In this document: positions 13,727 to 63,137 of the stretch, piece after piece | Layout of the letters: the number at the start of each line of letters is the position of its first letter | Numbering within the stretch: position 1 is the first letter of the stretch | Origin: Mugilogobius chulae | Taxonomy: Eukaryota | Assembly (NCBI GenBank): GCA_046056395.1 | Contig: CM100124.1 | Coordinates: forward strand, 574,968-638,967 | Reading direction: 5' to 3' | Length of the DNA: 64,000 nucleotides | Position numbers and translations under genes: made by a program | The notes under the pieces: generated by a model | Told to the model about the DNA's origin: nothing | Databases searched by the model: none | The model's input: the letters and a program-made list of their open reading frames with translations, nothing else

Positions 13727-13875
13727 GAGTTCGGGGTCTCGCGAGGTCGGCAGCAGAGCCTGTGGCTGCAGCAGGACTGTAGTTAACCAGAGCTAATGTG
13801 AGTCACCCACCGTAGCAAGACCGGTCCGGTGGCTGCACCGGAGTTAGACTGGAGGCAGTGTGAGCCCGGGGTGAG
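13727..13875 (+). repeat. interspersed repeat (family with core GGTGGCTGCACCGGAGTTGGACTGGAGGCAGTGTGAGCCCGGGGT) abutting the acceptor of the next exon
   Basis: copies at 13727-13875 (+), 22548-22700 (reverse complement) and 23175-23240 (+). Confidence 0.7.
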
Positions 13876-13903: not shown

Positions 13904-14005
13904 GACCTGACGGCCATCGGAGTCACTAAACCTGGACATCGCAAGAAGATTTCTCTGGAGATCACTCAGCTCAACATCGCAGAGTGGCTCCCGGAGTTTA
14001 TCCCG
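13904..14005 (+). CDS. caskin1: Caskin exon, second half of SAM domain 1
   Basis: cag|GAC CTG...CCG|gtaaga; translates to [34 protein letters not shown] (Caskin1 reads [34 protein letters not shown]); phase 0/0. Confidence 0.85.
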
Positions 14006-15500
14006 GTAAGAAACGCAAACATACATGTAAACAACAACAAACAAACATCGCAGAGTGGCTCCCGGAGTTTATCCCGGTAAGAACGCAACGTACATGTAAA
14101 CAACAACAAACAAACATCGCAGAGTGGCTCCCGGAGTTTATCCCGGTAAGAAACGCAAACATACATGTAAACAACAACAAACAAACATCGCAGAGTGGCT
14201 CCCGGAGTTTATCCCGGTAAGAAACGCAAACATACATGTAAACAACAACAAACAAACATCGCAGAGTGGCTCCCGGAGTTTATCCCGGTAAGAAACGCAA
14301 CATACATGTAAACAACAACAAACAAACATCGCAGAGTGGCTCCCGGAGTTTATCCCGGTAAGAAACTCAAACATACATGTAAACAACAACAAACAAACAT
14401 CGCAGAGTGGCTCCCGGAGTTTATCCCGGTAAGAAACTCAAACATACATGTAAACAACAACAAACAAACATCGCAGAGTGGCTCCCGGAGTTTATCCCGG
14501 TAAGAAACGCAAACATACATGTAAACAACAACAAACAAACATCGCAGAGTGGCTCCCGGAGTTTATCCCGGTAAGAAACGCAACATACACGTAAACGACA
14601 ACAAACAAACATCGCAGAGTGGCTCCCGGAGTTTGTCCCGGTAAGAAACACAAATATCTACTGTAAACAACAACAAACAAACATCGCAGAGTGGCTCCCG
14701 GAGTTTATCCCGGTAAGAAACACAAACATACACGTAAACAACAACAAACAAACATCGCAGAGTGGCTCCCGGAGTTTATCCCGGTAAGAAACGCAAACGT
14801 ACATGTAAACAACAACAAACAAACATCGAGATGCTCCCGGAGTTATCCGGTAAGAAAAAACAACATGTAAACAAAACAAACAAACATCGAGAGTGGCTCC
14901 CGGAGTTTATCCCGGTAAGAAACGCAAACATACATGTAAACAACAACAAACAAACATCGCAGAGTGGCTCCCGGAGTTTATCCCGGTAAGAAACGCAAAC
15001 ATACATGTAAACAACAACAAACAAACATCGCAGAGTGGCTCCCGGAGTTTATCCCGGTAAGAAACGCAAACATACATGTAAACAACAACAAACAAACATC
15101 GCAGAGTGGCTCCCGGAGTTTATCCCGGTAAGAAACGCAAACATGATACACAGTCCGGAGTTTATCCGGTAAGAAACCAAATACATGTAAACAACAACAA
15201 ACAAACATCGCAGAGTGGCTCCCGGAGTTTATCCCGGTAAGAAACGCAAAACATGTAAACAACAACAAACAAACATCGCAGAGTGGCTCCGAGTTTATCC
15301 GGTAAGAAACGCAAAATACATGTAAACAACAACAAACAAACATCGCAGAGTGGCTCCCGGAGTTTATTCCGGTAAGAGAAACGCAAACATAACATGTAAA
15401 CAAAAAAAACAACACAACAAACATCGCAGAGTGGCTCCCGGAGTTTATTCCGGTAAGAGACGCAAATATGTACTGTAAACAACAACAAACAAACAAACAA
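13966..15500 (+). repeat. 71-bp minisatellite, about 21 copies, each unit = last 32 nt of the SAM1 exon + GT donor + ~39 nt of intron
   Basis: unit atcgcagagtggctcccggagtttatcccg|gtaagaaacgcaaacatacatgtaaacaacaacaaacaaac repeated head-to-tail from the genuine exon end. Confidence 0.9.
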
Positions 15501-15769
15501 ACACACAACAAACAAACATCACAGACCGGCTCTAGTCCGTAGTAGTATTTTATTAACTGAAAGAAGAATTAAAACCCCGTATCATTCCGGCGTCCCTTCG
15601 AAGAGACGTCCCACTTTTTCTTTATAAATTCCATTTTGTTGAGTGTCTGAAAAAAACTATGAAGCACCTGTAAAGGTTAAATATAAAAATCCCATTGTAT
15701 CCCTTTTATTTAGAGTAAAATCAGCCTCTGGGACGATCCAGACTCAGATTTCTACTGGAAACCTCCAAA

Positions 15770-16225
15770 TAAAAAAAAGTCCTCAAAAATTCAAACATTT
15801 TAACAGGACTTTTGTATTGGCTCCACCTAGATTCTTTTGAGTAATTTTAGGTCCTAAAACACATTTTTACCTCAATCACCCTCAGCTTTTACAGAGGAAT
15901 GGTCAAAACCCCAAATCTGCCAAATCTAGAGTCATTTATGTCTAAACAGCAGCTTTACCAATCCTTTTAATTACCAAAACATTTAGGTGGAATTTAGATT
16001 GTGATTTTCTTTTGTTTGGAGAAAGTTCTCACTTCTGATGAGCCTGTTGGACATCAGAAGAAAAAACTACAGATACAGCTTTAAAAAGACCCCAGACATT
16101 TGCCTGAGCTCCAAAGGATCAGGAACAGTTTTAGTTTGAATTTTTACAGATTTTAGTCAGACGTGTGAGGGGAAAAGGACGGAATGAGAAGCATGAAGAT
16201 AGAGTTTAAATCACATGTAATAGTT
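15770..16225. repeat. ~450-bp interspersed repeat, copy 1 (copy 2 at 51690-52140)
   Basis: long near-identical alignment including cacttctgatgagcctgttggacatcagaag (an internal palindrome). Confidence 0.8.
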
Positions 16226-17199
16226 TATGTTCTGTAAAAATTACAGCTGGGCTGCGATTTTTTTTGTAATCGTGATGAATCGCATGCTTGAGCTGCGATT
16301 CCGATTAATCGCATTTTACACAGAAAGTTCAATAAATTGCTTTTTTAACCCTTTTTTCTCCAAAATGTAATTTTTTAAAAAAAGTATATTTAAGGTTCTT
16401 CATTATGTAGAGTGTACAATTCTGCACATTCTGTGGTATTTTGGTTTGATGCATAATTTTAGCACCAAATTATACATTATACATAACTCAGTTTTACATA
16501 ATAATATGAGCAGTGTGAATCAGTTTGGATATTTTTAAGATCAGAATGTTATTTCATCTTGTTTAGGCTGAACAGAAATGTACAAATCCAAGCTAATGGT
16601 TCTACAACATTTTCAGTCCAGTTCAGGTAAAATTTGGGCGAAACTTTACAGAAATTTTAGAGACATGGACAGTTCCCACAGGAGTAGAAACTCAGACCAC
16701 GTCGTAATTATTACAATTTACATGAGGCCGTGCGAATAGTTCTTTTGTTTGACAGAAATGTAATATTTCTAACTTTTCAGTATTTTTTCTGGTGGGAAAA
16801 AAGTCCCTGGCCTGGTCCTCTCGGGTCAAAATAACTTGGGAAGACAACAGATTCTATAATTTTTCAAAAGTTGACATCTGGGACCAACCATGAAAGTTTC
16901 ATGTTGGATCAGAGAATTGTATTTTATTGACAAAACACCCCAAAGATAACACAATAATCCATTCTGACAATAAAATAAAAAATAAGCTTCAGTTGAATTG
17001 CTGTTGTATTTATTTCTCAAATGTTCATCGTCAGGTTTGAAGCCCGAGACATGTTGTAGATCTGCTTTTGTCGTTTGGGGTTTGATGCTGTGGAACCTTT
17101 GGCTGTTTCCTCCTGTTGACCTTTGTGTTCTGTAAATACATCCAAACAATCTTCACTGGACGCTGTTTTGAAAGCAAAGATTTGCTGCTAAACAAGCGC

Positions 17200-17960
17200 G
17201 ATTGCAACTTGTGTCACCACCAAACTTCTGCACAAATATAAGTATTCATGCCTGAGTTTGGTCACATATCTACATGTCCGTTTCTTTATAGACATGAGTC
17301 CAGTGGTTTATGGCTGAACATGTCTGGATATATGTCTCACCCGGGTGTTTAAGGGCGTATAGGAATCTGCTGCTGTCGTGTTCAAGCCTCTCTCTCTCTG
17401 CGTCTGCAGATAGAGTCGACAATCAAGGCTCACTGTCGGCGCTGCTTGCATCAGAAGCTCCTCTATGGTCTTTCTTAGCTCCTCTATAACTCAAAAGTTG
17501 TCGATGGCAGCTTGCGTCGCCCAAACTCCTGCACAAATATAAGTATTCATGCCTGAGTTTGGTCACACATCTATATGTCCGTATCTTTACAGACATGAGT
17601 CCAGCGGTTTAAGGCTGAACATGTCTGGATGTGTTTCTCACCCGGATGTTTAAGTCTGGCAGGTGTTGGAAGCCATGCCAGGAAACAAACGATGTCAATA
17701 CCGGTTCCTTAGCAAGCTTGTGTCGCCACCAAACTCTTGCACAAATATAAATATTCATGCCTGAGTTTGGTCACATATCTATATCTTTATAGACATGAGC
17801 TTGGGTTTCATCAGCGGTTTAAGGCTGAAGATGTTCGGATGTATTTCTTACCCGGTTGTTTAAGGGGCGTACAGGTCAGGCAGGTGTTGTTGCTAAAAAC
17901 ATTGGGGCCAAGCCAGGAAACAAACGATGTTAAAGCCGGTTCCTTAGCGATCTTGTGGAA
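17200..17960. repeat. ~250-300-bp tandem repeat, 3 copies, at the 3' flank of the nested antisense gene
   Basis: 'caccaaacttctgcacaaatataagtattcatgcctgagtttggtcacatatctacatgtccg...' recurs at ~17215, ~17520, ~17725; a sub-segment ctctctctctgcgtctgcagatagagtcgacaatc... reappears inside the coding region at ~18040. Confidence 0.8.
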
Positions 17961-17964
17961 CTCC

Positions 17965-20900
17965 TTAATAGAAAAATTGGATGTTGCTGTGGTGGTCCAG
18001 GCCAAGCTGAACCAGGCGGCTGTTTCCAATCTGTCTCTCTCTCTCTTGGCGTCTGCGGATGGAGTCGACGATCGGGTCCACGCTGACGGAGCTGTTTCCA
18101 TCAGAAGCTATAGCCGTCCGGTCCTCTACACGATCACCACCAGTCGGCTCAGGGATGACAGATCTCGAATACTTCTCCTGCAGCTGGGTCATCAACGCCT
18201 TGGCTGCGTCCCTCTCCTCGCCGATCCTCCGTATCTCTTCGTTGGCTTCGACACACTCCTCTGTCTTCTTCACCAGCTCATCCCTGACTCTCTCAAACGT
18301 CCGTCTGCTCTTCATAAGCTTGTCTTCGGCTTGGTCGCAGTTCTCTCTGTACCTCTTCATCTCTCCCAGGGCATTGTCGCGCTCCTCTATGGCTTCGACG
18401 CACTCCTGTCTCTTCTTTATCAGCTCATCCATGTTTTGGTCGAACTTCTTTATGAGCGAGTTTTTGGTTTGTCCCACTCTTCTTTCATTCTTCTTTGCTC
18501 GTGCTTAGCGTCTTCGCACTCCTTTCTGTACTTCCTCTTCTCAACCCAGACACTTTCGTAATCCTGTCTGCACTTTCTCAGCTCTTCTCTAGTTTAATCA
18601 CATTCCTCTCTACTCTCTCTCAGCTCCTCTCTGATTGTCCTCCTCTGCGGTGTTTTTGTCCGCTCTAAGCCTTCACCTTTCAGACAGCTCTTGTTGTCCT
18701 TTCGCTCCGTTTCTAGCTCTTCCTTAAGCCAGTCTCGCTCACGATTACAAGCGAAGACTTGTTACTTTCCGTTTCCTCAACTTCTGAACTTTTCTTCTGT
18801 CGACTCTTGATCTCGTCCATTTCCCTTTCGTGACCCTCCTTCAGCCGCTTCAAGTCGTTCTCCAGCTTCTTCTCCAGTCCCTGACGTACTTCCTTAAACT
18901 CGGCATATTTACCTTTCATGACGGCTTTCATCTCCTCTTCCATCTCTCGTTTGGTGGAGCTTAAGCGTTCTTCTTTGGCTTTCTGGAGCTGTTCTTTTTC
19001 CTCGTCGAGCTCAGCCTGGATTTGTTCCAATTGTTGCTTGTGCATTGCTTTTAGTTCTTTTGCATTTTCCTCCTGCTGCTTTTGAAGTTTAGCTTCGAGT
19101 CTGGTATTTTCTTTCCCGATTTCATCCTCCAGATTCTCGCGGAGCTGCTCTAGTTTAGCCTCAGAGTCCTCTTTAAGCTTTTCTTCTTCCTCTCTCAACT
19201 TTGCAGACAGCGACTGACGTAGAGTCTGGAGTTGCATATCATTCTCAGCCTTTAGAAGCTTCTCTTGAGCTTTGAGACTTTCTCCAAGTCGCTCTAATTG
19301 TAGCTCGGATTCCTGCTTAAGTCTTTCTTCTTCCTGCGCTCTTTTGCTAAAATCGATTCACGCAAACGTTCTAGTTTCTCTTCAGTCTCTGCCTTCAGAC
19401 GATCCTTCTCCTCTTTGATCAACCTCTCTCGCCTCAGCCGATCAGTTCTAAGCTCTTCTTCAAGTCGCTCTAATCTGTCTTCCTCCTCTTTTCTCTTTTC
19501 TCTCATTCTCTCGTCAGTCTCAGCCTTTAGACGCTCCCCCTCCTTCCAGACCATCTCCTCCTGCACAATCCGATCGATTTGGATGGCTTCCCGTAAGTCC
19601 CGTAGTTCTTTCTCAGATTCCCGCTTCAGTCTTTCTTCCTCCTCTTTTCTCTTTGACAAAAACGACTGACGCATAGTTTCCACTCTCTTGTCAGTCTCAG
19701 CCTTTAGACGTTCCTCCTCCTTCCAGATCATCTCCTCTTGCACAATCCGATCGATTTGGATGGCTTCCCGTAAGTCCTGCAGTTCTTTCTCAGATTCCCG
19801 CTTCAGTCTTTCTTCTTCCTCTCTTCTCTTCGCTGACAGTGACCGGCGCAGTTCGCTCAGTCGTTCTTCGCTTTCAGCCTTCAGCCTCTCTTCTTCGTCT
19901 CTCTTCAGTGTTAGTTCTTCTGTCACTTCCAAACTCAAATCAGGCTGGAGCTTTTGAGACGAGGGCTGGTCAAACTTGTCGACCTGGGTGATCTGGGAGA
20001 AAGATCTTTGTCTTCAGTCATGCTTACTGCTTCCTCGTTGAAGTCATTGTCATAATTTGATGGACTGTCATCACAGAAAGAGTCTAAGTCTACGTCTGTG
20101 TTGTCGTCATCTTCTTCAATCTCGGGCTTATCAGACAAGTCTGATGAAGCTCGGGAAAGACTGAGCGAACGAACGGAAGAATGGTCTATTTCCGCTTCTA
20201 AAACCTCACTCACCTGCCCTTCCTTTTCAAAAACGTCATTGTCGTAGCTTAACGGTGGTGTTGGATCATCAAAGACTGAATTTAGCGATTTTAAGTCCAG
20301 ATCTGTGTCTTCTTCCAGTGAACTACGATCTCCATTATCTGCAGGTAGTTTCAAATCATCCCCCCAAAAGTCATCTTCTGTAGCTTTTCCGTCTCCTCCC
20401 TCATCATCTTCTTTAAGAACCTCGAGTGAAGCTCGTCATAAAAGTCTGATAAATCTTCAGAAAAACTGGACGATCTGGGAGAAAGATCCTCATCCTCTTC
20501 ATTGCCTTCTTCAGAGAACTTCTCGTCTCTTGCCTTTAACCTGATCTGTTCCTCCTCATCCAGCTCCTCGTTGTAATCAAAGTCTGAATTTAGCGATTTA
20601 GGTCCAGATCTGTGGCTGCGTTATTAGGAGCCATGTCTTCTTCCAGCGAACCAAGATCTCCAATATCTAAGTTTATATTTTCTGCTGCTTTGAGAGAAGC
20701 AGCAGTGAGAAAGAGCGTGTCTTTCTTCGTCTTTGTTCTTGCGGTTGAACGTTGTTCCTGCGCTGCTTCACGCCTGGCCTTACACCTCTGCAGTAGACGG
20801 TCAATGGAGTCTTCTTCCTCGTCGTCTGTTTCTGTCTCTGAAGGCAGGGCTGTGTTATTCTCTTCGGTGTCTGAGTGCAAGTCGCGTTCGGTTGAATATT

Positions 20901-21406
20901 GTTCCTGCGCTGCTTCACGCCTGGCTTTAAACCTGGCTTTAAACCTCTGCATTAGAAGGTCAAGGGAGTCTTCTTCCTCGTCGTCCGTTTCTATGTCCGA
21001 AGGCAGGGCTGTGTTCATCTCTTCGGTGTCTGAGTGCAAGTCGCGTTCTGTCGTTTCCATTTTCGCTGCTCCTTGGTTTTTCACATTCAGCTCTTCGTCG
21101 CTCGAAAGCACATCCAGGAGCTTTCTTCTCGCTCGTCTCTGTGAAATCTGAATCATTACCGACCTCTGTGGGAAAGAACGTGTCTTTCTTCGTCTTTGTT
21201 CTCGCGGTTGTGAGTTGTTCCTGCGCTGCTCTGCGCCTGGCTTCACACCTCTGCACTAGACGTTCAAAGGAGTCTTCTTCCTCGTCGTCCGTTTCGATCT
21301 CCGAAGGCAGGGCTGTGTTCATCTCTTCGGTGTCTGAGTTCAAGTTCAGCTGCAGGTCTCGTTCTTGCGTTTCCATTTTCAGTGCTGTTTTGGTTTTCGT
21401 ATTCAT
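17965..21406 (-). CDS. intronless antisense gene nested in a caskin intron: acidic N-terminal repeats plus long E/K/R-rich coiled-coil; open frame broken in at least 5 places as assembled
   Basis: consecutive minus-strand ORFs 20960-21406, 20590-21246, 19935-20354, 19294-19938, 18713-19237 and 17965-18477 abut or overlap in different frames; three ~150-aa N-terminal repeats (METxERDLHSDTEEMNTALPSxIETDDEEEDS..RCKARREAAQEQ), then EERLKAE/REEEERLKRESEKEL heptad-like repeats. Confidence 0.6.
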
Positions 21407-21600
21407 CTCCTCGTCGCTCGAAGCACGTACGGGAGTTTGTTCTCGCTCATCTTTGTGAAATCTGATCTATCTGTGTCGTACAGCGTCAGATAAACTGTTT
21501 TTACGTGGGAGCTCTGTGTCTGTGTGGCGTTCGGTTCGCTTCTCGTCGAGTTGTGACAGAATCGCTGACGTCACAGCCTAGAAAAGCCTAGAAAGGTTGT
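21407..21600 (-). promoter_or_regulatory. putative promoter/5' UTR of the nested gene, containing a palindromic CRE TGACGTCA
   Basis: tgacgtca at ~21567-21574, ~160 bp upstream (on the minus strand) of the ATG at 21406; an upstream in-frame ATG is followed quickly by a stop. Confidence 0.3.
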
Positions 21601-22295
21601 TGCTATGGTAACGTATTAGTTTAGTTTAGTTTATTTAATGAAACAGGGACAATGCACAATATACATTAACCTAAAATAGGAGAGATGCTTTGTATCAGGT
21701 TATAGCACAAGTCGTCCCTGGCAGGTTGATTTAACAGCAGATAAAATAATAATAATTATAAATTTAATTTATACTATAGTGCTGTTCTAGACACTCAAGA
21801 CGCTTTACAGTCAAAGGCAGTTGGGTCATTCTACAGAAACGGTGCCTTTTGTGTCCTTTAGTGGAAAATGAAAATATACAAAAATCATCAAAGTGTGTGC
21901 TTTGAATTTTAAATGTTTATTTAGAGTGTTCAATTTCAAAATCCAGATATTTCAAAAACTGCTCCTTGTTTTAGAGACACAGCCGGGAGAGCTGTTGATG
22001 TTGTTGAGGAGCATGGTACTAAAATGGCCGGTACATCTTAAAACTTCTGCCACATCATTCACACTCCTACAGGTCATTCATTCTCTCAGCACTTCACACA
22101 GTCGCTTTAAAATACACACTCACATCAGTCCGTGTAAAGAAAACTTAGTATTTTATGTTTTGCCAGAATGTGACAGTGATGAAATGAACGGCCTTTCCTG
22201 TCATGAATCCATAAAGAACTTTTATACAATGATTCAAATGGTCTCAGGGCAGATTTACAGGCCTGGGACCAACTTGTGATGCACTAAAAGAAACG

Positions 22296-23800
22296 TGGGA
22301 TAGGGCTGCACGATATTGACAACAAATCTAATTGCGATTTTTTTGTTTGATATTGCGATTTCGATTCGATATTCGATATTTATTAACATGTGTACATGGT
22401 TTTTTTTCTGTTGAGCAGGCCATTTTGCAACAATATTAAAAATAAACTGCCCTACTAATGAAAAGTTACATACATACATTTTAGATTGATTGATTGGATG
22501 TTGTGCTTGATAATTCAGTTGGCCTGTATAAACAGTAACTAAAGTAACTTACCCCAGGCTCACACTGCCTCCAGTCCAACTCCGGTGCAGCCACCGGACC
22601 GGTCTGCTACGGTGGGTGACTCACATTAGCTACGGTGGTCTACAGTCCTGCTGCAGCCACAGGCTCTGCTGCCGACCTCGCCAGACCCCGAACTCACGGA
22701 GGTTCACGTTCAACGTCAGAGAATAATACATCCATGGGGAGAATACGCGATCGCTGAGCACTTTTTTCTCTCTCTCTCTTTCGCTGAGCACAAATGTAAA
22801 CAAAGAACACGCGCCGAGTTTTGAGCTTGTTTCACGTCAGTTGATTTTCTGTTTGATTTTTCGCCCACAATGGGTAAGTACGGAGGTTTATTTACATTCT
22901 ATGTGTTACATAATCGTGTAAATGTCCTATTTTTACGTATTTTGTATTATTAGTGGTAACGTAATGATTTTATTTTGAAAACTACCGGATTTACTTCACC
23001 CGCGCTCGCTTGGTTTCCTGTTATCGTGTTTTGTTTTCACAACTTCATCAAAAAGGGCTCCGGCGTCCGGCCAAAATTTGAAACAAACGAAACGGATTCG
23101 GAGCGCCGGATTGGCCGTACCGGAGACACCGGACTGGACTGTAGCTGTGTGAGCCACTCTCGGACTTTTCAAGTTAAGTAAAGACTCCGGTGGCTGCATC
23201 GGAGTTGGACTGGATGCAGTGTGAGCCCGGGGTTAGACTATTATTTAACCTGTGACAGAAATATACATCTACACCAGCAGATGGCGCCAACGTCCCCTGT
23301 AGAGCTCTGGCGTGTTATACTGGAAAAAAAACAAAAAAGATTGCTAAAACTCCAATAACAATGTTTATCTCTTAAGGACTGAGCAAACCTGCGTGACTCT
23401 GCGGTGTTTACGGACTTATATCAGTCATGCAGCTTTTATTCACTTGGATTTTATGTTTGTGAAGAAAACAAACTGGATTTGCCTCGGAAAATATTGATGC
23501 TTTGCCTGTTCAGGTAAGCGGCTAAAGCTAGCAGCATCTGCAAAATGTGACTCTTTATTTATGAGTGATTTTATTGAATACGCACTAGAACAGTCATGAA
23601 AGTCATTTTGTGCAGTTTAAAGGCCTGTTGCTGTGGTGCTGCCCTGTGTTCACTTTCGTGGTGCGCTGTGTCCAATAAAAATAAAAAAGGAGGCTAAAGC
23701 GTAAGAAAAGGAGGAATATCGAGGCTTTTGCAATTAGGTAATCACAGTTGTCAGTATTGATTCGATATCAATATATCGTGCAGCACTAATGTGGGACAAT
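22296..23800. mobile_element. DNA-transposon relic with TIR GGGCTGCACGATAT(A)TTGA
   Basis: 22298 gggctgcacgatattgacaa matches the reverse complement of 23765-23795 ttgattcgatatcaatatatcgtgcagcactaat; carries family-X repeat copies internally. Confidence 0.55.
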
Positions 23801-23939
23801 AATTTCATTCAGATACGTAAGTCCCGAAGTCAAAGATACTCAAAAGAGTTTCTACTGAAAAAGAATGTCCAGTTAGTCATGTTGTGCTAAAAATGTAAAT
23901 CTACGAAGCTTAAACCTGGTGTCCACAACACAAGTTTAT

Positions 23940-24345
23940 TCTACTGGCAGGAGGACTTGGGGCGTGGCTTAGCTCTCTTGTATTCTATTGGCAGGAGGAC
24001 TTGGGGCGTGGCTCAGCTCTCTTGTATTCTATTGGCAGGAGGACTGGGGGCGTGGCTTAGCTCTGTTTACTCTATTGGCAGGAGGACTTGGGGGCGTGGC
24101 TCAGCTCTGTTTATCTGTATTAACAGGAGGACTTGGGGGCGTGGCTCAGCTCTCTTGTATTCTATTAACAGGAGGACTTGGGGCGTGGCTCAGCTCTCTT
24201 GTTTTCTATTAACAGGAGGACTTGGGGCGTGGCTCAGCTCTCTTGTTTCTATTACAGGAGGACTTGGGGCGTGCTCAGCTCTCTTGTATTCTATTGGCAG
24301 GAGGACTTGGGGGCGTGGCTTAGCTCTCTTGTATTCTATTAACAG
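23940..24345 (+). repeat. 43-45-bp tandem repeat, about 10 copies, each unit = polypyrimidine tract + AG acceptor + first ~24 nt of the SAM2 exon
   Basis: unit ctcttgtattctattggcag|GAGGACTTGGGGCGTGGCTCAGCT; the final copy runs into the genuine exon (GAGGACTTGGGGGCGTGGCTCAGCTCCATAGGCCTGCTGCAG, translating to [14 protein letters not shown]). Confidence 0.85.
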
Positions 24346-24484
24346 GAGGACTTGGGGGCGTGGCTCAGCTCCATAGGCCTGCTGCAGTATCAGAGGAGAC
24401 TTTGTGAAAACGGATACGACTCGATGGAGATCGTCAAAGACCTGAGCTGGGAGGATCTGCAGGAGATCGGCATCACCAAACTGG
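24346..24484 (+). CDS. caskin1: Caskin exon, SAM domain 2 (major part)
   Basis: aacag|GAG GAC...AAA CTG G|gtcagg; translates to [47 protein letters not shown] (Caskin1 reads [47 protein letters not shown]); phase 0 start matches the 14005 donor. Confidence 0.85.
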
Positions 24485-24739: not shown

Positions 24740-25262
24740 GATTTTTAAGTGAAATGAAAGAGAGAGAGAGAGGAGAGAAAGAGAGAGTGAGAGAGAGAGA
24801 GAAAGAATAGAGAGAGAGTGAAGAGAGATAAGAGAAAGTAGAGAAAGAGAGAGGGAGAAGTGAGAGAAAGAAAGAGTGAAGAGAGAGGAGAAGAAAGAAG
24901 AGAGAGTGAAGAGAGAGAAAGTGAAAAGAGAGAGAGAAAGAGTGAAAAGAGAGAAAGAGGAGAGAGAAAGGAGAAGAGAAAGAAAGAGAGAGAAAGAGGA
25001 AGAGAGAGAAGAGAAAGAAAGTGAAAAGAGAGAGAAAAAAGAGTGAAAAGAGAAGAGAGAGAAGAGGAAGAGAGAAAGAAGAGAGAAAGAGTGAAGAGAG
25101 AAGAAAGAAAGAGTGAAAAAGAGAGAGAGAAGAGAAAGAGAGAGAGAGAAAAAGAGTGAAAAGAGAGAGAAAGGAGAGAGAGAGAGAGAGAGAGAGAAAA
25201 GAAAAATGAGAGAGAGGAGAGTGAAGAGAGAAGAGAGAGAGAGAAAGGGGATGGAGAGGAAA
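24740..25262 (+). repeat. GA-rich purine tract (~520 bp)
   Basis: gagagagagaggagagaaagagagagtgagag... low complexity. Confidence 0.9.
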
Positions 25263-25808: not shown

Positions 25809-25955
25809 GGTCACCAGAAGAAGCTGATGTTGGCGGTGAAGCGAGTGTGTGAGCTGCACAGAGCCGCCGCTCAGGGGGAACTCTGAGGAGACGAGCCCCT
25901 GGGCCCCCGGAGTGTGAGGGGCCCCGAGTCCTCACCTCAGCTCCAGCAACGCTCA
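25809..25955 (+). CDS. caskin1: Caskin exon, end of SAM2 plus linker; in-frame TGA at 25883 as assembled, needing two 1-bp corrections to reach the next exon
   Basis: G|GT CAC CAG AAG AAG CTG ATG translates to (G)HQKKLMLAVKRVCELHRAAAQGEL*; the -1 frame gives GGTLRRRAP (Caskin1 reads EGGPLRRKAP); donor CAG|gtaaga at 25955/25956. Confidence 0.7.
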
Positions 25956-27834: not shown

Positions 27835-28547
27835 GACGGAGACTTGAGCGCTGAGATTCCCTGTGCTCTCTCTCGACCCGGAGAGTCTCTCAGTCTGAGT
27901 CTGTCCCACAGCGATGAGAGCCTGGCCGAGCGCTCCCGAGGGTCCGGACGCTCTCAGGACACGCCCCAGGACACGCCCCTGGACCCGCCCACAGACCTGC
28001 CCGAGTCCAGAGACCAGACCCGGACCAAACACGTCCCTCAAGGCACCGCCACGGTCTTCAAGTACCCGGCCATCCCAGCGAAGCCAAGAGTGTGTGGGTC
28101 TCCTCATGGCCCCGCCTCTTCTCCACGTGGTCCCGCCTCTTCTCCCCGTGGCCCCGCCTCCTCCCCCCGTGGCCCCGCCCTCCTGAAGCAGGCGCAGGTG
28201 TCCCGGGGCTCTCTGTCGGACGGAGAACAGGGCGAGGATGAGGAGGAGACGGTTCTTCCTCCATCCTACGCCACACTGAGCCGCCGCCGCTCGCAGAGAG
28301 GCGCTCCCGGAGGTGGCGAGGGGGAGCGCGTGGGGCGGAGCCAGTCCTTCGCCATCAGAGCGAGAAAGAAAGGCCCGCCCCTCCTCCACCCAAACGTCTC
28401 AGCTCCGTCAGCTCTCCGAGTGACGAGCAGAGCGACAGCAGTGTGTCCGACAGCCCGGGACGAGTACGGACCCTCGCCAAGGCCCTGGAGCCACGCCCAC
28501 AAGAGCCACGCCCTCAAGAGGCCTGTCCGCAAGAGCCACGCCCACAG
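27835..28547 (+). CDS. caskin1: Caskin exon, Pro/Ser-rich region (RSQSFAIRARKKGPP motif)
   Basis: cttcag|GAC GGA GAC; ORF 27823-28611 includes ...SPRGPASSPRGPASSPRGP...YATLSRRRSQRGAPGGGEGERVGRSQSFAIRARKKGPPLLHP (Caskin1 reads RVGRSHSVRAP...RSQSFAVRPRKKGPPPPPP); donor CACAG|gtacgc; the frame at the 3' end is inconsistent with the start, implying an indel. Confidence 0.75.
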
Positions 28548-28722
28548 GTACGCTCACACCTGCTTTAGCCACGCCCACAGGTACGCTCACACCTGCTTTA
28601 GTCCGGGTTAGATCTGGATTAGACCTGGTTTAGAACTTGTACTACGAAGCTAGATTGTGCTGTTGTTGTCTTTTCCGTTCAGTCTTTAATTCTGATTGGC
28701 TGTTCCTTGTGTCCAATCACAG

Positions 28723-29660
28723 GAGGGCTCTGCAGCTGGGAGGCGGGGCCAGAGCGCTGTGACGTCAGACTCGGAGTCGGAGGAGTTACGAGCTTTGGGC
28801 GGAGCTTCACAGAGCAGCTCCAGCGAGTGCATCCCATTCGCAGAGGAAGGAAATCTCACCATCAAACAGAGACCCAAAGCCCCGCCTCCTCCCGCGCCGA
28901 AGACGTCCTGGGACTGGACCAGGACCGGACCAGGGACCAGACCAAAGAGCAGCAGCAGACCACGCCGGAGTTTAACCTGAAGGAGTCGGACACGGTGAAG
29001 CGCAGGCACAAACCCAAAGACTCCGGCGACGGTTCTCCAGGCAGAAGTCCCCAGGAACCAGACAGCGCCACGTCCAGTCTGGAGGAGCTCAGGGCCTTTC
29101 CTCCGAGGCCGGCCCAGGACCTAGCGGCGTCCCCGGGGTCTGTGCTGAGAGCTGCTTCTCCGCTCAGGGCTGGTTCTCCGCTCAGGGCTGGCTCTCCGCT
29201 CCGGTTTGAGTCGTCCCTCAGACCTGGATCTCCGCTCAGACCTGCCCCGGATCGAGCCTCTTCTCCCGGTTCTCCGCTCCGGTTCGAGTCCTCCCTCAGA
29301 CCCGGTTCTCCGCTCAGACCTGCCCCGGACCGAGCCTCTTCTCCCGGTTCTCCGCTCCGGTTCGACTCCACCCTCAGACCTGGATCTCCGCTCAGAGTTG
29401 CCCAGGACAGAGCTGCGTCTCCAGGTTCTCCGCTCCGGTTCGACTCCACCCTCAGACCTGGTTCTCCGCTCAGAGCTGCCCAGGACAGAGCTGCGTCTCC
29501 GGGGTCTCTGCTGCGGCCGAGCCCCTCTTCAGACCCGGCTCTCCTGGTTCTCCCGGCTCTCTTGGTTCTCCCGGTTCTCCTGGTTCTCTGCACAGGCCTT
29601 GTCTCTCTCCCAAACCTGCCGTGGCGCCTAAACCTGTGCGCCAGAGTCTGCTCAGTCAAG
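28723..29660 (+). CDS. caskin1: Caskin exon, Pro-rich region with ESDTVKRR motif and a 20-aa SPLR coding tandem repeat; frame changes twice within the exon as assembled
   Basis: cacag|GAGGGCTCT; three successive frames read EGSAAGRRGQSAVTSDSESEELRALGG, then FNLKESDTVKRRHKPKD...(GSPLRFESSLRPGSPLRPAPDRASSP) x5, then SPKPAVAPKPVRQSLLSQ|gtcaga (Caskin1 reads ILTESDTVKRRPKAKE; PPVSPKPVLTQPVPK). Confidence 0.75.
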
Positions 29661-32665: not shown

Positions 32666-32900
32666 GCTCCGGCCGCTCGTCTCCAGGTCTGTCTGTGTCC
32701 GTGCTCCAGAGCGTGGCCTTCTCCTCGCCCCCCCGCTGCCTAAGCCCCGCCCTCAGCCCCGCCCGCTCCCCCTCCCGCAGTCACATGACCTCTCCGGGGT
32801 CACATGACTCTGAGGTGCAGCTGCGACTGGATCAGACCAGTGTGAGTCTGGAGGCGGCTCTGCAGGACGTGGAGCGCAGCCTGGAGCGGCAAACGGACTG
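32666..32900 (+). CDS. caskin1: Caskin exon (penultimate)
   Basis: ctcag|GC TCC GGC translates to (G)SGRSSPGLSVSVLQSVAFSSPPRCLSPALSPARSPSRSHMTSPGSHDSEVQLRLDQTSVSLEAALQDVERSLERQTD; phase 1 start matches the 29660 donor (G|GC); donor GGACTG|gtaata; the end phase mismatches the last exon by 1 nt. Confidence 0.7.
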
Positions 32901-33300
32901 GTAATAACCGGTTATTCATGTTTATTAAGCTCTTATTCATGTGTAACAAGCCTGGAGCGGCAAACGGACTGGTAAGAACTGGTTATTCATGTTTATTAAG
33001 GTTTATTCATGTGTTACAAGCCTGGAGCGGCAAACGGACTGGTAAGAGCCTGTTATTCATGTTTATTAAGGTCTTATTCATGTGTAACAAGCCTGGAGCG
33101 ACAGACCGACAGGTAATAACCGGTTATTCATGTTTATTAAGCTCTTATTCATGTGTAACAAGCCTGGAGCGACAAACGGACTGGTAATAATCTGTTATTC
33201 ATGTTTATTAAGCTCTTATTCATGTGTAACAAGCCTGGAGCGGCAAACCGACTGGTAAGAGACCCTTATTCATGTGTTATTAAGGTCTTATTCATGTGTA
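32878..33300 (+). repeat. ~70-bp tandem repeat, 6 copies, unit = last 21 nt of the exon + GT donor + ~45 nt of intron
   Basis: cctggagcggcaaacggactg|gtaa(t/g)a(a/g)c.ggttattcatgtttattaag(c/g)tcttattcatgtgtaacaag recurs at ~32878, 32951, 33021, 33092, 33163, 33229. Confidence 0.9.
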
Positions 33301-33775
33301 AAAGTACTGGCACTATTTTATTTATTGAACCTTTATTTTACCAGGAGGTCCCTTGAGATAAAACTTGGACAGAACAATTCAGTGAAACATTTAAACCATG
33401 ATAAACATATATATAAAGAAAAGTAAAGTATCCAGCTCAAGAATGACATTTAAAAGTTTCAATGAAGACATTTTTAAGAAGAAACTTCAAAATAGTCAGT
33501 ACCAGAAGTTTTAAAGGTTTCTGAATGTTGTTTCAAACCCAGGGAGCTGCCGTTCAGCCCAGTTCAGTGTTAATCAACTTAAACAGAAGCTACTGTGAAG
33601 AACGAGAGTTATATCCAGTGTTCGCTGGAGTCAGGAGCTGCACATGTCTGAGGCAGTTTATCCATTATGGCTTTATATATAAAAATAAGCCAGTGCTGTT
33701 GTGTTCTGAGGCTCTAAGGCAGGAGACCAGAGCAGCTCACAGGGGTGGGTCCTGAACAGTGCGTTTGTAATAAAT

Positions 33776-36185: not shown

Positions 36186-36436
36186 GACAGGTTAACAGGT
36201 CAACGTTTTACTGGCCTCATCATGTCCACAGTTTATATATTTTTATAATGTTGTTTTTTATTTAGCATCAGTACAAGACTGTTACAAATCTATGCAACTG
36301 TTTTTGACCAAGACTGACAACAAACTATTTTTGAATATCCTCCATACAACCTTTAAAGAAATGTTCATGATAAGATCAAAACTGCAGAACTCTGACAACT
36401 GTCCAATCCTAAACTGTCTGTGTTTGTGTTTATCAG

Positions 36437-36532
36437 CTCGGCCTGCGCCGTGAAGTCCGCCGGACCATCCTGGACGACATCGGGACCATGTTCGACGACC
36501 TCGCCGACCAGCTGGACGCCATGTTGGAGTGA
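36437..36532 (+). CDS. caskin1: Caskin terminal exon, conserved C-terminal tail, TGA stop at 36530-36532
   Basis: tatcag|CTC GGC CTG CGC CGT GAA GTC CGC CGG ACC ATC CTG GAC GAC ATC GGG ACC ATG TTC GAC GAC CTC GCC GAC CAG CTG GAC GCC ATG TTG GAG TGA translates to [31 protein letters not shown] (Caskin1 ends [22 protein letters not shown]). Confidence 0.85.
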   Translation, partial: [31 protein letters not shown]

Positions 36533-57489: not shown

Positions 57490-57950
57490 ATGTGCACTGA
57501 CTTCAACCTGGTTTAGACCTGGTTTAGGCCTGGTTTAGGCCTGGTTTAGTCCTGGTTTAGACCTGGTTTAGACCTGGTTTAGTCCTGTTATAGTCCTGGT
57601 TTAGTCCTGGTTTAGACCTGGTTTAGTCCTGGTTATAGTCCTGGTTTAGACCTGGTTTAGTCCTGGTTTAGACCTGATTATAGTCCTGGTTTAGACCTGG
57701 TTTAGTCCTGGTTTAGACCTGGTTTAGTCCTGGTTTAGACCTGGTTTAGTCCTGGTTTAGTCCTGGTTTAGTCCTGGTTTAGTCCTGGTTTAGACCTGGT
57801 TTAGACCTGGTTTAGTCCTGGTTTAGTCCTGGTTTAGTCCTGGTTTAGTCCTGGTTTAGTCCTGGTTTAGACCTGGTTTAGTCCTGGTTTAGACCTGGTT
57901 TAGACCTGATTATAGTCCTGGTTTAGACCTGGTTTTAGTCCTGATTTTAG
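57490..57950. repeat. 11-bp satellite (CCTGGTTTAGA/CCTGGTTTAGT)n, about 40 copies
   Basis: direct reading; the same monomer is dispersed at 28598-28640, in mvp intron 1 (60760-61620, 62290-62480) and at 63360-63410. Confidence 0.9.
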
Positions 57951-58916
57951 TCCCTACAACCTTTAAAAAATCGTGAAATTAAAATCTCTCTAAACCCGAC
58001 TCGTCCTCCAGGCTCCTGCAGAGTCTCAAAAGTCTTAAAGGTCCCGTGTTAAACTGAATGAACTTCAGTCGTGTTATTCTGCTGTTCTTTTACCACATTT
58101 TTTTAAACTATTCTGCTTTTTAGGCTCTCTTATATTTTGTGGATATTTGTGGAAACTCCATCGTGTTTTTTCCACGCACTGAGAAGCTGTGGATTCAAAT
58201 GTAGGCAAATACAAGACTGGAAACACTGGAACGACATAAAAACATTTTCTGTTTGGACACTTCCTGAAAAATGCTAAACTTGTATGAATGAAGCAGAACA
58301 CAGCAGCAGCTTTGTTTCTGATGAATAATTATGTTAAAACAAGTATTAAAAAGGTGCGTAATTTAGCATCTTTGAATTTAAAATGGGAAATGTAAAGTTT
58401 TAAATGTTTTTTCTGAACATGAAGCAGCATTTTTAGACTTAAGACATGACCGACTGTAGATGGGTTTTTGGTGCGTTGGCCTGCGACATGTTTGTGTATA
58501 AAGCAGAGCTGTGGAATATATCGAATTTTAGATAATATCATGAATGTAGTTTTCAAGATATCCAAAAATGGAATATGGAGTATATCGTTCATAGTTAAAA
58601 TTGCCACAAAAAGAACCTAGTGTAAGAATAGAAAATAGAGAAAATGATGCAGTAACTTTCAATTTAGGACATAAATATAACATGTCTGCACTTCTGTGAT
58701 TCTTTTACAACATTTTACTTTGTTCACGTGACATCCCAGTATTCTCCAGACCGATAATACTTCACACAGATGTTTGTAGCTCAAATAAATCTTCAAAGTT
58801 GTAATACAAAAGTGATCAGGTCTAGTCATTTAAGGAAATCACCAGATTGAAACAGTTGAAATGATTTTTTAGATATTTAATGACAAAGTACAAAAATCAG
58901 AAATCTTCTTCACCGT

Positions 58917-60594: not shown

Positions 60595-60758
60595 ATGTCT
60601 AAGAAGTCAGGTCCTCGAGTCGTGGACATGGATCTCCCTGTGGACGCCTCCATCATCAGGATTCCTCCTCATCACTACATCCACGTCTGGACCAGAACAC
60701 CAACATCGCCCGCGTGGAGACCGGACCCGCTGACCTACATCAGACAGGACAATGAGAG
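60595..60758 (+). CDS. mvp: major vault protein exon 1 (start codon at 60595)
   Basis: ATG TCT AAG AAG... translates to [54 protein letters not shown](R); human MVP reads [39 protein letters not shown], so the middle ([17 protein letters not shown]) is in the wrong frame as assembled; exons 2-3 confirm the gene; donor GAG AG|gtgagt. Confidence 0.8.
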
Positions 60759-61620
60759 GTGAGTTAGACCCAGTTTAGACCTGACTTAGACCTGACTTAG
60801 ACCCACGTTCTGGACCAGAACACCAACATCGCCCGCGTGGAGACCGGCCCGCTGACTTATATCAGACAAGACAATGAGAGGTGAGAAAGACCGGACCTAG
60901 ACCTGACTTAGACCTGGTTTAGACCCACCTACATCAGACAGGACAATGAGAGGTGAGAGAGACCGGACTTAGACCTGGTTTAGACCTGACTCAGACCTAC
61001 GTCCTCGACCAGAACACCAACATCGCCCGCGTGGAGACCGGCCCGCTGACTTATATCAGACAGGACAATGAGAGGTGAGAGAGACCGGACTTAGACCTGA
61101 CTTTAGACCTGGTTTAGACCCACCTACATCAGACAGGACAATGAGAGGTGAGAAAGACCGTACTTAGACCTGACTTAGACCTGGTTTAAACCCACCCACA
61201 TCAGACTGGACAATGAGAGGTGAGAGAGACCGTACTTAGACCTGATTAGACCTGGTTTAGACCCACCTACATCAGACAGGACAATGAGAGGTGAGAGAGA
61301 CCGACTTAGACCTGGTTTAGACCTGGTTTAAACCCACATCAGACAGGACAACGAGAGGTGAGAGAGACCCAGTTTAGACCTGACTTAGACCGCTAGACCT
61401 GGTTTAGACCCACTACATGGACATGAGAGTGAGAAGACCTGACTTAGACCTGGTTGACGGTTTAGACCGGTTTAGACCCACCTACATCGCAGGACAATGA
61501 GAGGTGAGAAAGACCTGACTTAGACCTGGTTTAGACCGAGTTTAAACCCACCTACATCAGACAGGACAATGAGAGGTGAGAAGACTCGACGTAGACCTGG
61601 TTTAGACCTGGTTTGCTATG
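60700..61620 (+). repeat. ~70-180-bp tandem repeat, about 12 copies, each unit = 3' end of mvp exon 1 + GT donor + intron start (which is the 11-bp CTGGTTTAGACC satellite)
   Basis: units such as acctacatcagacaggacaatgagag|gtgagagagaccggacttagacctggtttagaccc; longer units (60800-60880, 60985-61090) repeat ~60 nt of the exon (ccagaacaccaacatcgcccgcgtggagaccggcccgctgacttatatcagacaggacaatgagag|gtgaga); further copies at 62290-62480. Confidence 0.9.
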
Positions 61621-62559
61621 ATAAAACTTTATTGTCCATATGAAAACGGAAATTTGCCTTACATATCTGCAACTGCTGCAAGTCCCACATACAACAGACT
61701 TCATTCATCAACATAAAAGATAAAAATACATGAATACATGCGGTAAGATCATGTGTTCTTCCTTTGGTTTAAAAATGTGATGGAACATGACACAAAAGAA
61801 TGTTTAGATTTATTCCTCCTGCTGCAGGGAAATCGAAAACGCCGTCCAGAGAGTAAGAACTCAAACTCATTGTTTAAAACATGATCTGTGTCTGGAGATC
61901 CTGTAGACCAGCCGTTCCCAAACTTTTTGGAGCCGTGCCCCCCCTATTGGCCCATAGATTGCCTGAGGCCCCTCAGTATTATTTCACACTCCATTCAAAG
62001 TTAGTTAGAATGTATATATTTCATATTAGCATTGGGAATCACTGCTGTACCAATGCCACTGTTTTCTTTGTTTGCAAATGAGTGAATGTGCTCTCAAGGG
62101 GAGGTCCTATTTTGGAGCAGATGTTCAGAAGCCTCTGAATCCTGTTCTTTTGTTTAACCGAAAGGCCACAGAACCAAGCCTTACTGCACTAAAGCAGCAG
62201 ACTTTGGATAGTGACTATATAGAACTGCTCCAAGATGTTTCTGTTGACTCCAAAAGAGCTGAGCCTCATCAGAAACACGATTCGTTGTTGCACAAATCTA
62301 CTTTCTTAGACCTGGTTTAGACCCACCTCACTCGACAGGACAAGGAGAGATGAGAAAGACCGGGTTTAGGCCTGGTTTAGACCTGGTTTAGACTTGACAT
62401 AGACACACCTTCATCAGACAGAACCACAAGAGGTGAAAAAACAGACTTAGACTTGGTTTAATCCTGGTTCAAGCCTGGTTTACACCTGGAGATGCATTTT
62501 TCTGTCTTCAGAGCCCGTTTCCTCCCGTGGCAAATTAGATTCATGTTTTGTAGTGCTAT

Positions 62560-62941
62560 ATTCATATTTTCATCTCTCGTGTCAGAGTCCTGTTTCCTCC
62601 CCTGTGGTCTTGTAGTGTTACATTTATATTTTCTCTCGTGTCAGAGTCCTGTTTCCTCCCCTGTGGTCTTGTTGTGTTATATTCAGTATTTCTCTCTTGT
62701 CAGAGTCCTGTTTTCTCCTCTGTGGTCTTGTAGTGTTACATTTATATTTTCTCTCGTGTCAGAGTCCTGTTTCCTCCTCTGTGGCCTTGTAGTGTTACAT
62801 TTATATTTTCTCTCGTGTCAGAGTCCTGTTTCCTCCTCTGTGGCCTTGTAGTGTTATATTTATATTTTCTCTCGTGTCAGAGGCCTGTTTCCTCCTCTGT
62901 AGTCTTGTAGTGTTACATTTATATTTTCTCTCTCGTGTCAG
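62560..62941 (+). repeat. ~60-bp tandem repeat, 7 copies, each unit = polypyrimidine tract + AG acceptor + first ~25 nt of mvp exon 2
   Basis: unit ttttctctcgtgtcag|AGTCCTGTTTCCTCC(T/C)CTGTGG(T/C)CTTGTAGTGTTACATTTATA repeated; the final copy is the genuine exon-2 start. Confidence 0.9.
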
Positions 62942-63137
62942 AGTCCTGTTTCCTCCGCTGCGGATGCTGATGGTGCCTCCGCGTCACTACTGCGTCATCC
63001 TCAATCCCGTTGCCCGCGACGACAACGACCAGGTCCAGTTCGACCAATCAGGGCAGGCCAAGCTGAGACACGCCGACCAGGAGATCCGCCTCACCCAGGA
63101 CCCGTTCCCCCTGTACCCCGGGGAGGAGGTCCAGCAG
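62942..63137 (+). CDS. mvp: major vault protein exon 2
   Basis: gtgtcag|A GTC CTG TTT translates to (R)[65 protein letters not shown] (human reads [67 protein letters not shown]); phase 2 start matches exon 1; donor CAG|gtatga. Confidence 0.9.

Follow-up and report, generated by a model that had tools for sequence, protein, structure and literature searches.

A minisatellite built from an exon-intron junction in a caskin-2 gene of Mugilogobius chulae

Features of the caskin-2 locus

The window analysed here is a 64,000-nucleotide (nt) stretch of the genome of Mugilogobius chulae, to which all coordinates refer. On its forward strand it contains a caskin-2 gene in which the end of one coding exon, together with its splice donor, is reiterated in tandem into the following intron, and in which a second tandem array spans the acceptor at the other end of the same intron. 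The features at the centre of this account are given below, with the evidence for each in parentheses; the comparison loci are seven caskin-2 loci of other fish.

13904..14005, forward strand: caskin-2 exon (SAM1b), encoding the SAM1-SAM2 linker and the C-terminal half of SAM1 (match to PDB 4is7/5l1m, E about 1e-17; conserved in all seven comparison loci)
13976..15493, forward strand: donor-side junction minisatellite, 22 units of about 71 bp (Tandem Repeats Finder (TRF), unit parsing and alignment, sequence reading)
14006..24345, forward strand: caskin-2 intron between the SAM1b and SAM2a exons, 10,340 nt, GT-AG, phase 0 (exon ends set by homology)
17965..21466, reverse strand: nested antisense protein-coding gene, rich in glutamate/lysine (E/K) coiled coil (open frames, homology)
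23932..24371, forward strand: acceptor-side junction minisatellite, 10 units of 42-45 bp (TRF, sequence, unit alignment)
24346..24484, forward strand: caskin-2 exon at the start of SAM2 (SAM2a) (tblastn against the seven comparison loci; sequence)

The exon at 13904-14005 is 102 nt long and ends in phase 0, precisely at the boundary given in the earlier note, and its last 30 nt constitute the exon part of the repeat unit. Its translation matches the human Caskin-2 SAM tandem 4is7 with E = 8e-18 and Caskin-1 (3sen) with E = 4e-16; an earlier note on this DNA had assigned the host to the caskin genes, and the matches in PDB agree, with Caskin-2 the closest. The features expected of the family, namely tandem SAM domains, a proline-rich region and a C-terminal tail, were all found, the ankyrin and SH3 exons lying outside the window or being unmapped, and the proline-rich and tail exons are homologous to loci with products that carry the Pfam domains Caskin-Pro-rich and Caskin-tail. 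The authentic caskin-2 splice sites are all intact. For the flanking SAM exons, the ratio of non-synonymous to synonymous divergence (dN/dS) is 0.07-0.18 against other fish and 0.08-0.26 among those fish, Dissostichus mawsoni being left out of the comparison as its alignment was off by one codon; judged by these ratios, the two exons are under purifying selection.

Structure of the donor-side array

TRF reports a 71-bp array at 13973-15144, with 16.7 copies and 95% matches, and a degenerate continuation to 15495. Parsing on the donor motif divides the array into 22 units, all of which retain GGTAAGA (22/22), so that the authentic donor is followed by 21 copies of itself. The earlier note had described a tandem array of exon end and donor with about 21 cryptic donors, and on both points TRF and our own parsing bear it out. 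It had also divided the unit into 32 nt of exon and about 39 nt of intron, a layout that stands with altered sizes: each unit takes 30 nt from the exon tail, besides a 3-nt AAC microhomology, and its intron part is 41 nt long, with GTAAGA followed by about 35 A/C-rich nt. At the unit boundary, AAC is all that the exon (CTCAAC/ATCG) and the unit end (CAAAC/ATCG) have in common.

The final exon-like bases of successive units fall at 14005, 14076, 14145 and so on to 15452, and the spacing between donors is 65-81 nt overall and mostly 69-72 nt. Unit 1 is the authentic junction, unbroken with the upstream coding sequence of caskin-2; six further units match it at 100% identity, and 17 of the 22 retain the 30-nt exon tail ATCGCAGAGTGGCTCCCGGAGTTTATCCCG unaltered. 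Units 13, 17, 18 and 21 are truncated or decayed, a degenerate remnant lies beyond unit 22 at approximately 15515-15545, and the distal end of the array passes into (AAAC)n. Units 6 and 7 share the variant AACTC, and units 21 and 22 share ATTCCG; such variants common to neighbours, together with the decay of distal units, point to an evolved repeat history. A 33-nt probe from the intron part had 11 matches within the array and none elsewhere in the window (0 expected from 100 shuffles). The exact 57-nt unit found no match in metagenome contigs, and neither the exon nor the frame that reads from it through the junction found one above 86% identity in public protein sets.

Units differ from one another in pairwise comparison by 0.024 per site over the exon-derived 30 nt and by 0.138 over the 42 intron-derived columns, approximately a six-fold difference. 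Better conservation of the exon part was considered as a general rule for such arrays and rejected, as it is clear in the 71-bp array at 13976 only: in the array at 32877 described below the difference is weak (0.086 vs 0.108), other arrays have a weaker trend in the same direction, and the comparison for the donor array of the major vault protein (MVP) gene is confounded by alignment.

The acceptor-side array and the nested gene

At the far end of the intron, TRF calls an array at 23937-24371 with a period of 44 and 9.9 copies. In each unit, roughly 19 nt from the end of the intron, YAG included, precede roughly 26 nt from the start of the exon (GAGGACTTGGGG(G)CGTGGCTCAGCTC), and the last of the ten units is the authentic acceptor at 24345/24346. 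Between its two arrays the intron now contains an antisense gene and fragments of transposons, which bring it to its present 10.3 kb.

The antisense gene ends in LVQLGLDHHSNIQFFY with its stop codon at 17965-17967. In tblastn it is collinear from 20679 to 17968 with two adjacent predicted proteins of Mugilogobius chulae, WMY93_008110 and WMY93_008111, with identities of 66% and 48%; beyond this stretch, related open frames extend as far as 21466. A Pfam search of its open frames gave nothing above threshold, and the notothenioid caskin-2 loci lack the gene. The way in which its frames overlap suggests further indel errors, and it holds a coding minisatellite of 177 bp x 1.8 at 19507-19830, the period being a multiple of three. 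Transposon-like repeats flank the nested gene. One such element, about 50 nt long, has copies at 22548-22598, 23186-23236 and 13818-13872; the first two copies form an inverted pair, 92% complementary and 587 nt apart, near the acceptor array, and the third lies 30 nt upstream of the SAM1b exon.

Comparison with other fish

The comparison set consists of seven caskin-2 loci from six fish samples, namely Champsocephalus esox (L001), Dissostichus mawsoni (L002) and four Logan samples (L003-L007), among which L006 and L007 have the same sequence. In all seven the exon ends at the same codon and is followed by a homologous phase-0 GT-AG intron of 69, 82, 83, approximately 101-102 or 130 nt (range 69-130). 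TRF detected no junction-spanning repeats in these loci, about 56 kb in total, and in 15 further read-through frames, taken from other samples, the exon always gives way at ...IP/V, ...KP/V or ...TP/V to unrelated intron sequence. As the introns of the relatives are free of repeats, the array is derived from the exon in this lineage and is not an old satellite that resembles the exon by chance; the proposal that it was seeded at the exon-intron junction thus holds, the homologous introns in all seven loci being short and repeat-free. The presence of the intron at the same codon and phase in all seven loci is also not what would be seen if tandem duplication had created the intron.

The intron parts of the repeat units have no similarity to the short introns of the relatives beyond the splice signals. 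An idea drawn from lengths only (41 + 19 nt vs 69-130 nt) is that a donor unit and an acceptor unit would together rebuild the ancestral intron. A caveat to the comparison is that synonymous divergence (dS) from all comparison species is large, at 0.7-1.3.

Consequences of splice-site choice for the reading frame

The earlier note had described the repeated donors as able to extend the exon in frame, and this part of it fails, since 71 is not a multiple of three and a premature stop follows from every downstream donor (21/21). Use of donor 2 adds 71 nt to the exon, shifts the frame and leads to a stop 10 codons into the next exon; use of any of donors 3-22 leads to a stop at the TAA formed at CGG/TAA of the second donor. 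As 71 is not a multiple of three and every extension meets a stop, the array does not behave as a set of in-frame tandem alternative 5' splice sites. At the other end, the nine upstream acceptors all give premature stops (9/9), and an open frame results only from the outermost donor-acceptor pair. To judge from the translated frames, any use of the other 21 donors or nine acceptors would lead to a premature stop and probably to decay of the transcript. Most likely, the arrays would be silent, with the first donor and the last acceptor being the sites used.

Further junction repeats and remaining features of the window

The rest of caskin-2 and the beginning of a second gene, MVP, carry further arrays of the same construction. 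The remaining features are as follows.

ends 2482, forward strand: caskin-2 upstream exon (homology to fish loci)
2417..2865, forward strand: donor-side junction repeat of caskin-2, three 164-165-bp units (TRF, sequence, exon homology, unit alignment)
11857-11967, forward strand: caskin-2 SAM1a exon (homology to fish loci)
from 25810, forward strand: caskin-2 HQKK exon (homology to fish loci)
approximately 27.8-29.7 kb, forward strand: caskin-2 large proline-rich exon (homology to fish loci)
28534..28601, forward strand: putative recent duplication of a caskin-2 junction, two copies (33 bp x 2.1, 100% identical) (TRF)
ends 32900, forward strand: caskin-2 C-terminal exon (homology to fish loci)
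32877..33301, forward strand: donor-side junction minisatellite of the C-terminal caskin-2 exon, six 71-bp units (TRF, sequence, unit alignment)
36431-36529, forward strand: caskin-2 last exon, ending in ILDDIGTMFDDLADQLDAMLE and the stop codon (homology to fish loci)
60735..61623, forward strand: donor-side junction minisatellite after the first coding exon of MVP (TRF, sequence, unit alignment)
62551..62965, forward strand: acceptor-side junction minisatellite before MVP exon 2, seven 59-61-bp units (TRF 62548-62960, sequence, unit alignment)

The unit at 2417-2865 combines about 66 nt from the exon end (...PQTDDGYTLYGHVAFPNAG) with the donor and some 95 nt of intron, and the authentic donor is at 2482/2483. 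The exon concerned is homologous to positions 236-358 of the D. mawsoni locus, where it ends in CAG/gtacat; its peptide had no match in a PDB search. In the pair at 28534-28601, AGCCACGCCCACAG meets gtacgctcacacctgcttt at the junction, and CAG/GTACGC is found in two identical units; the intron at this place is putative, a frame switch here fitting a phase-0 GT..AG intron. The units at 32877-33301 comprise 24 nt of exon tail (...LEAALQDVERSLERQTD), GTAAKA and about 41 nt of intron, and the authentic donor is at 32900/32901.

MVP was identified by a match to PDB 3gf5 (E = 4e-54), and its first coding exon runs from an ATG at 60595 to 60758. The donor array that follows has 10 perfect GAGAG/GTGAG donors in units of 72 or 122 bp, with decayed units at approximately 62300-62480, and the acceptor unit consists of about 35 nt of intron tail with CAG and 24 nt of exon head, the authentic acceptor being at 62941/62942. 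MVP intron 1 thus extends over 60759-62941 (2,183 nt), of which an estimated 70% or so, from the array coordinates, are junction copies. An 11-bp satellite (TTAGACCTGGT and variants) is present at 57507-57953, 60775-61334 and 62357-62404; 3 kb upstream of MVP it builds an array of 40 copies, the intron part of the MVP donor units is made of it as well, and short internal repeats are likewise present in the intron parts of other donor units.

In total, junction repeats were found on five of the nine donors and two of the six acceptors that were checked in the window, seven in 64 kb, as against none in the approximately 56 kb of homologous fish loci. Seven of the 10 long-period arrays overlap a splice junction, where 1.19 would be expected from random placement and none of 20,000 permutations reached seven, a figure that is inflated because some junctions were noticed through their arrays. 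Two of the three arrays off junctions are in-frame coding repeats (78 and 177 bp).

Several other repeats were observed along caskin-2. The large proline-rich exon holds coding minisatellites with periods that are multiples of three, of 78 bp x 4.2 (29193-29516) and 21 bp x 3.9 (28099-28179). An imperfect (TC)n tract of 2.1 kb occupies 7795-9915 in an upstream intron, and an (AG)n-rich tract of 0.5 kb at 24758-25247 directly follows the SAM2a exon. At 939-1157 there is a reverse-transcriptase-like fragment (VQCGVPQGSCLGPLLFSIFTNDLP) in common with elements in the notothenioid loci, presumably the remnant of a long interspersed nuclear element (LINE).

The sequence is interrupted at several places in coding exons. 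One nucleotide is lost from a C-run inside the conserved KKGPPPPPPKRLSS motif of caskin-2 (approximately 28372), an in-frame TGA occurs at 25884-25886 in a caskin-2 exon, the large proline-rich exon has at least three frame changes, and MVP exon 1 has changes of -1 and +1 in C-runs at approximately 60687 and 60725. Downstream of each break in caskin-2, conservation continues in the shifted frame through to the end of the protein. Because the shifted frames stay conserved and two unrelated genes are affected, the frame breaks and the in-frame TGA most likely represent errors of a noisy long-read-type assembly and not marks of a pseudogene. Homopolymer indel errors in the assembly make the exact copy number of the arrays, and single-base indels between units, uncertain.

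Origin of the junction arrays

The caskin-2 array is probably a minisatellite of the type of the amphioxus "mirages" and of human F7 IVS7, in which a 71-bp segment spanning the junction of a short ancestral caskin-2 intron was duplicated, amplified and homogenised, probably without a useful effect. The ancestral intron would have been short, about 70-130 nt as in the relatives. The first duplication probably occurred by slippage or microhomology between the exon end ...CTCAAC and an (AAAC)n tract at the head of the intron, after which replication slippage, unequal exchange and gene conversion would have amplified and homogenised the 71-bp unit. An independent or linked process at the acceptor end may have given rise to the 44-bp unit and its 10 copies, and the spliceosome would take the first donor and the last acceptor, as experiments demonstrated in human F7 and as observed in the amphioxus mirages. 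The junction repeats of this window most likely arose by slippage and unequal exchange and are neutral or mildly deleterious.

Several points weigh against this account. The lower variability of the exon-derived part of the unit is not predicted by plain neutrality; it could stem from conversion by the constrained exon, from slippage or sequencing-read errors in the A-rich part, or from selection acting on pseudo-sites. The excess of arrays at junctions hints at a bias beyond plain slippage. The gene and the comparison loci are not proven orthologues and may be paralogues, because the neighbour downstream of caskin-2 in D. mawsoni was not found in the window and synteny therefore differs. Some leakage to the pseudo-sites is plausible here, given that in IFI6 and CBS the first two pseudo-sites are also used (PMC1557585).

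The same use in IFI6 and CBS speaks for a reading that follows on from the earlier note, that the alternative donors are really used, extend the exon by multiples of 71 nt and create new isoforms, as does the good consensus CCG/GTAAGA (complementary to U1 at 7/9 positions) that all 22 donors keep in an identical exon context. However, no extension is in frame, the product would be truncated in the SAM1-SAM2 linker with its transcript a likely target of nonsense-mediated decay, and in F7 only the first site is used (PMC1557585), which makes this reading scarcely credible. The arrays may alternatively be adaptive, the 22 U1-binding donors and the acceptors aiding the processing of an intron that has grown 100-fold and holds an antisense gene. 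Proposed routes are the suppression of premature cleavage and polyadenylation or a nested inside-out order of splicing, and the much better conservation of exon tail and donor among units would fit such a role, as would the presence of two-ended arrays in introns of two different genes and of a gene nested in the intron. Against it, the donor arrays at 2417, 28534 and 32877 have no matching acceptor array, the difference in conservation is weak in the array at 32877, copy numbers are unmatched (22 donors vs 10 acceptors), and the known cases act as silent repeats (PMC1557585, PMC3087553); we regard an adaptive role as very improbable.

Tandem arrays are usually collapsed, not expanded, by assemblers. 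This weighs against the possibility that the array, or its copy number, was made or inflated by the assembler and that the true junction is single-copy, as do the substitutions shared by neighbouring units and the decayed distal end, which assemblers do not invent, and the occurrence of seven separate junction repeats with different units in two genes. An artefact is accordingly rated highly unlikely, even though the assembly does carry indel errors (the C-runs in caskin-2 and MVP, and the TGA at 25884-25886) and the read-through frame and the 57-nt unit matched nothing in the collections searched, so that they provide no independent confirmation. The errors also bear on a further explanation, that this caskin-2 copy, being a pseudogene in decay or a redundant paralog, can bear the arrays because it has no more need of accurate splicing: the in-frame TGA, the three or more frame changes in the proline-rich exon and the concentration of four of the junction repeats in this one gene would suit it, yet the breaks are of homopolymer type and are also seen in the unrelated MVP, as expected of sequencing error, while the shifted frames are conserved, dN/dS of the SAM exons is low and the authentic splice sites are undamaged. 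Decay or redundancy of the gene is very unlikely to be the explanation.

Set beside the probable origin of the caskin-2 array as a neutral mirage-type repeat, a wider proposal is tentative and may well be wrong: that this is a teleost lineage with a rate of junction-anchored tandem duplication so far described only for amphioxus, in which introns have grown 20- to 100-fold from their own junctions. If so, it would represent a lineage-specific mode of intron growth, possibly reflecting a mutational bias directed at junctions or conversion from the constrained exon, and would provide a natural genome-wide set of identical competing sites for testing the choice of 5' and 3' splice sites. The caskin-2 intron is itself a natural test of splice-site choice, since it offers 22 identical donors with 10 near-identical acceptors, of which a single pairing yields a working protein. 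Should the density seen in this window extend across the genome, it would point to a means by which introns grow from their own ends, and it would put gene prediction and assembly in this species at hazard, as the wrong copy of a splice site could be chosen in annotation.

Relation to known junction-spanning repeats

Minisatellites that span an exon-intron boundary are known from human F7 IVS7, IFI6, CBS, LMNB2 and PDGFA (PMC1557585), and from amphioxus as the mirages of Adh3, TnC, the globin genes BflGb6 and BflGb9, and PGBD5 (PMC3087553, PMC3902484). By its structure the caskin-2 array belongs to this kind and is not new in kind: it is a tandem minisatellite array, its outermost unit is the authentic boundary, and the splice consensus is reiterated in it. 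The chief points of note are instead the arrays at both ends of an intron, the approximately 100-fold growth of that intron and the local density of junction repeats; a search of the literature (open-access papers) for such repeats, or for a comparable density of them, in a teleost found no report.

A close human parallel is the variable number of tandem repeats in F7 intron 7 (Borensztajn et al. 2006, PMC1557585), where, as in caskin-2, the first unit is the authentic exon end with its donor and identical pseudo-sites follow. Only the most upstream site of F7 is used, the second being activated when the first is mutated (PMC1557585). The F7 array has 5-9 units of 37 bp with 4 exon nt each and no matching array on the acceptor side, whereas that of caskin-2 has 22 units of 71 bp with 30 exon nt, and its intron does have such an array. 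In scale caskin-2 is comparable to IFI6 (6-16) intron 2 (25 pseudo-sites), CBS IVS13 (15-20 repeats), LMNB2 (10-15 x 100 bp) and PDGFA intron 4 (16-18 x 81 bp), in all of which copies of the donor stand at the head of the intron (PMC1557585). IFI6 and CBS use two pseudo-sites besides the real one, but in caskin-2 such use would truncate the protein.

A model of Rogers, in the outline given in PMC3087553, explains the gain of introns by tandem duplication of an exon segment that contains AGGT, and in that outline it resembles the caskin-2 case in that duplicated exon sequence with splice signals comes to lie within an intron while the mRNA is unchanged. The caskin-2 intron is old, having the same position and phase in the seven comparison loci, and the process here is therefore growth of an intron and not a gain of the Rogers type. 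The mirages of amphioxus resemble the arrays of this window in several ways: they occur at both 5' and 3' boundaries and in several genes of one genome, and their units (10-160 bp in amphioxus) are homogenised. The edges of their arrays escape homogenisation, and splicing is reported to be normal (PMC3087553, PMC3902484). Amphioxus is, however, a cephalochordate, whereas the present arrays are those of a teleost in which two introns are two-ended and one of them is inflated approximately 100-fold.

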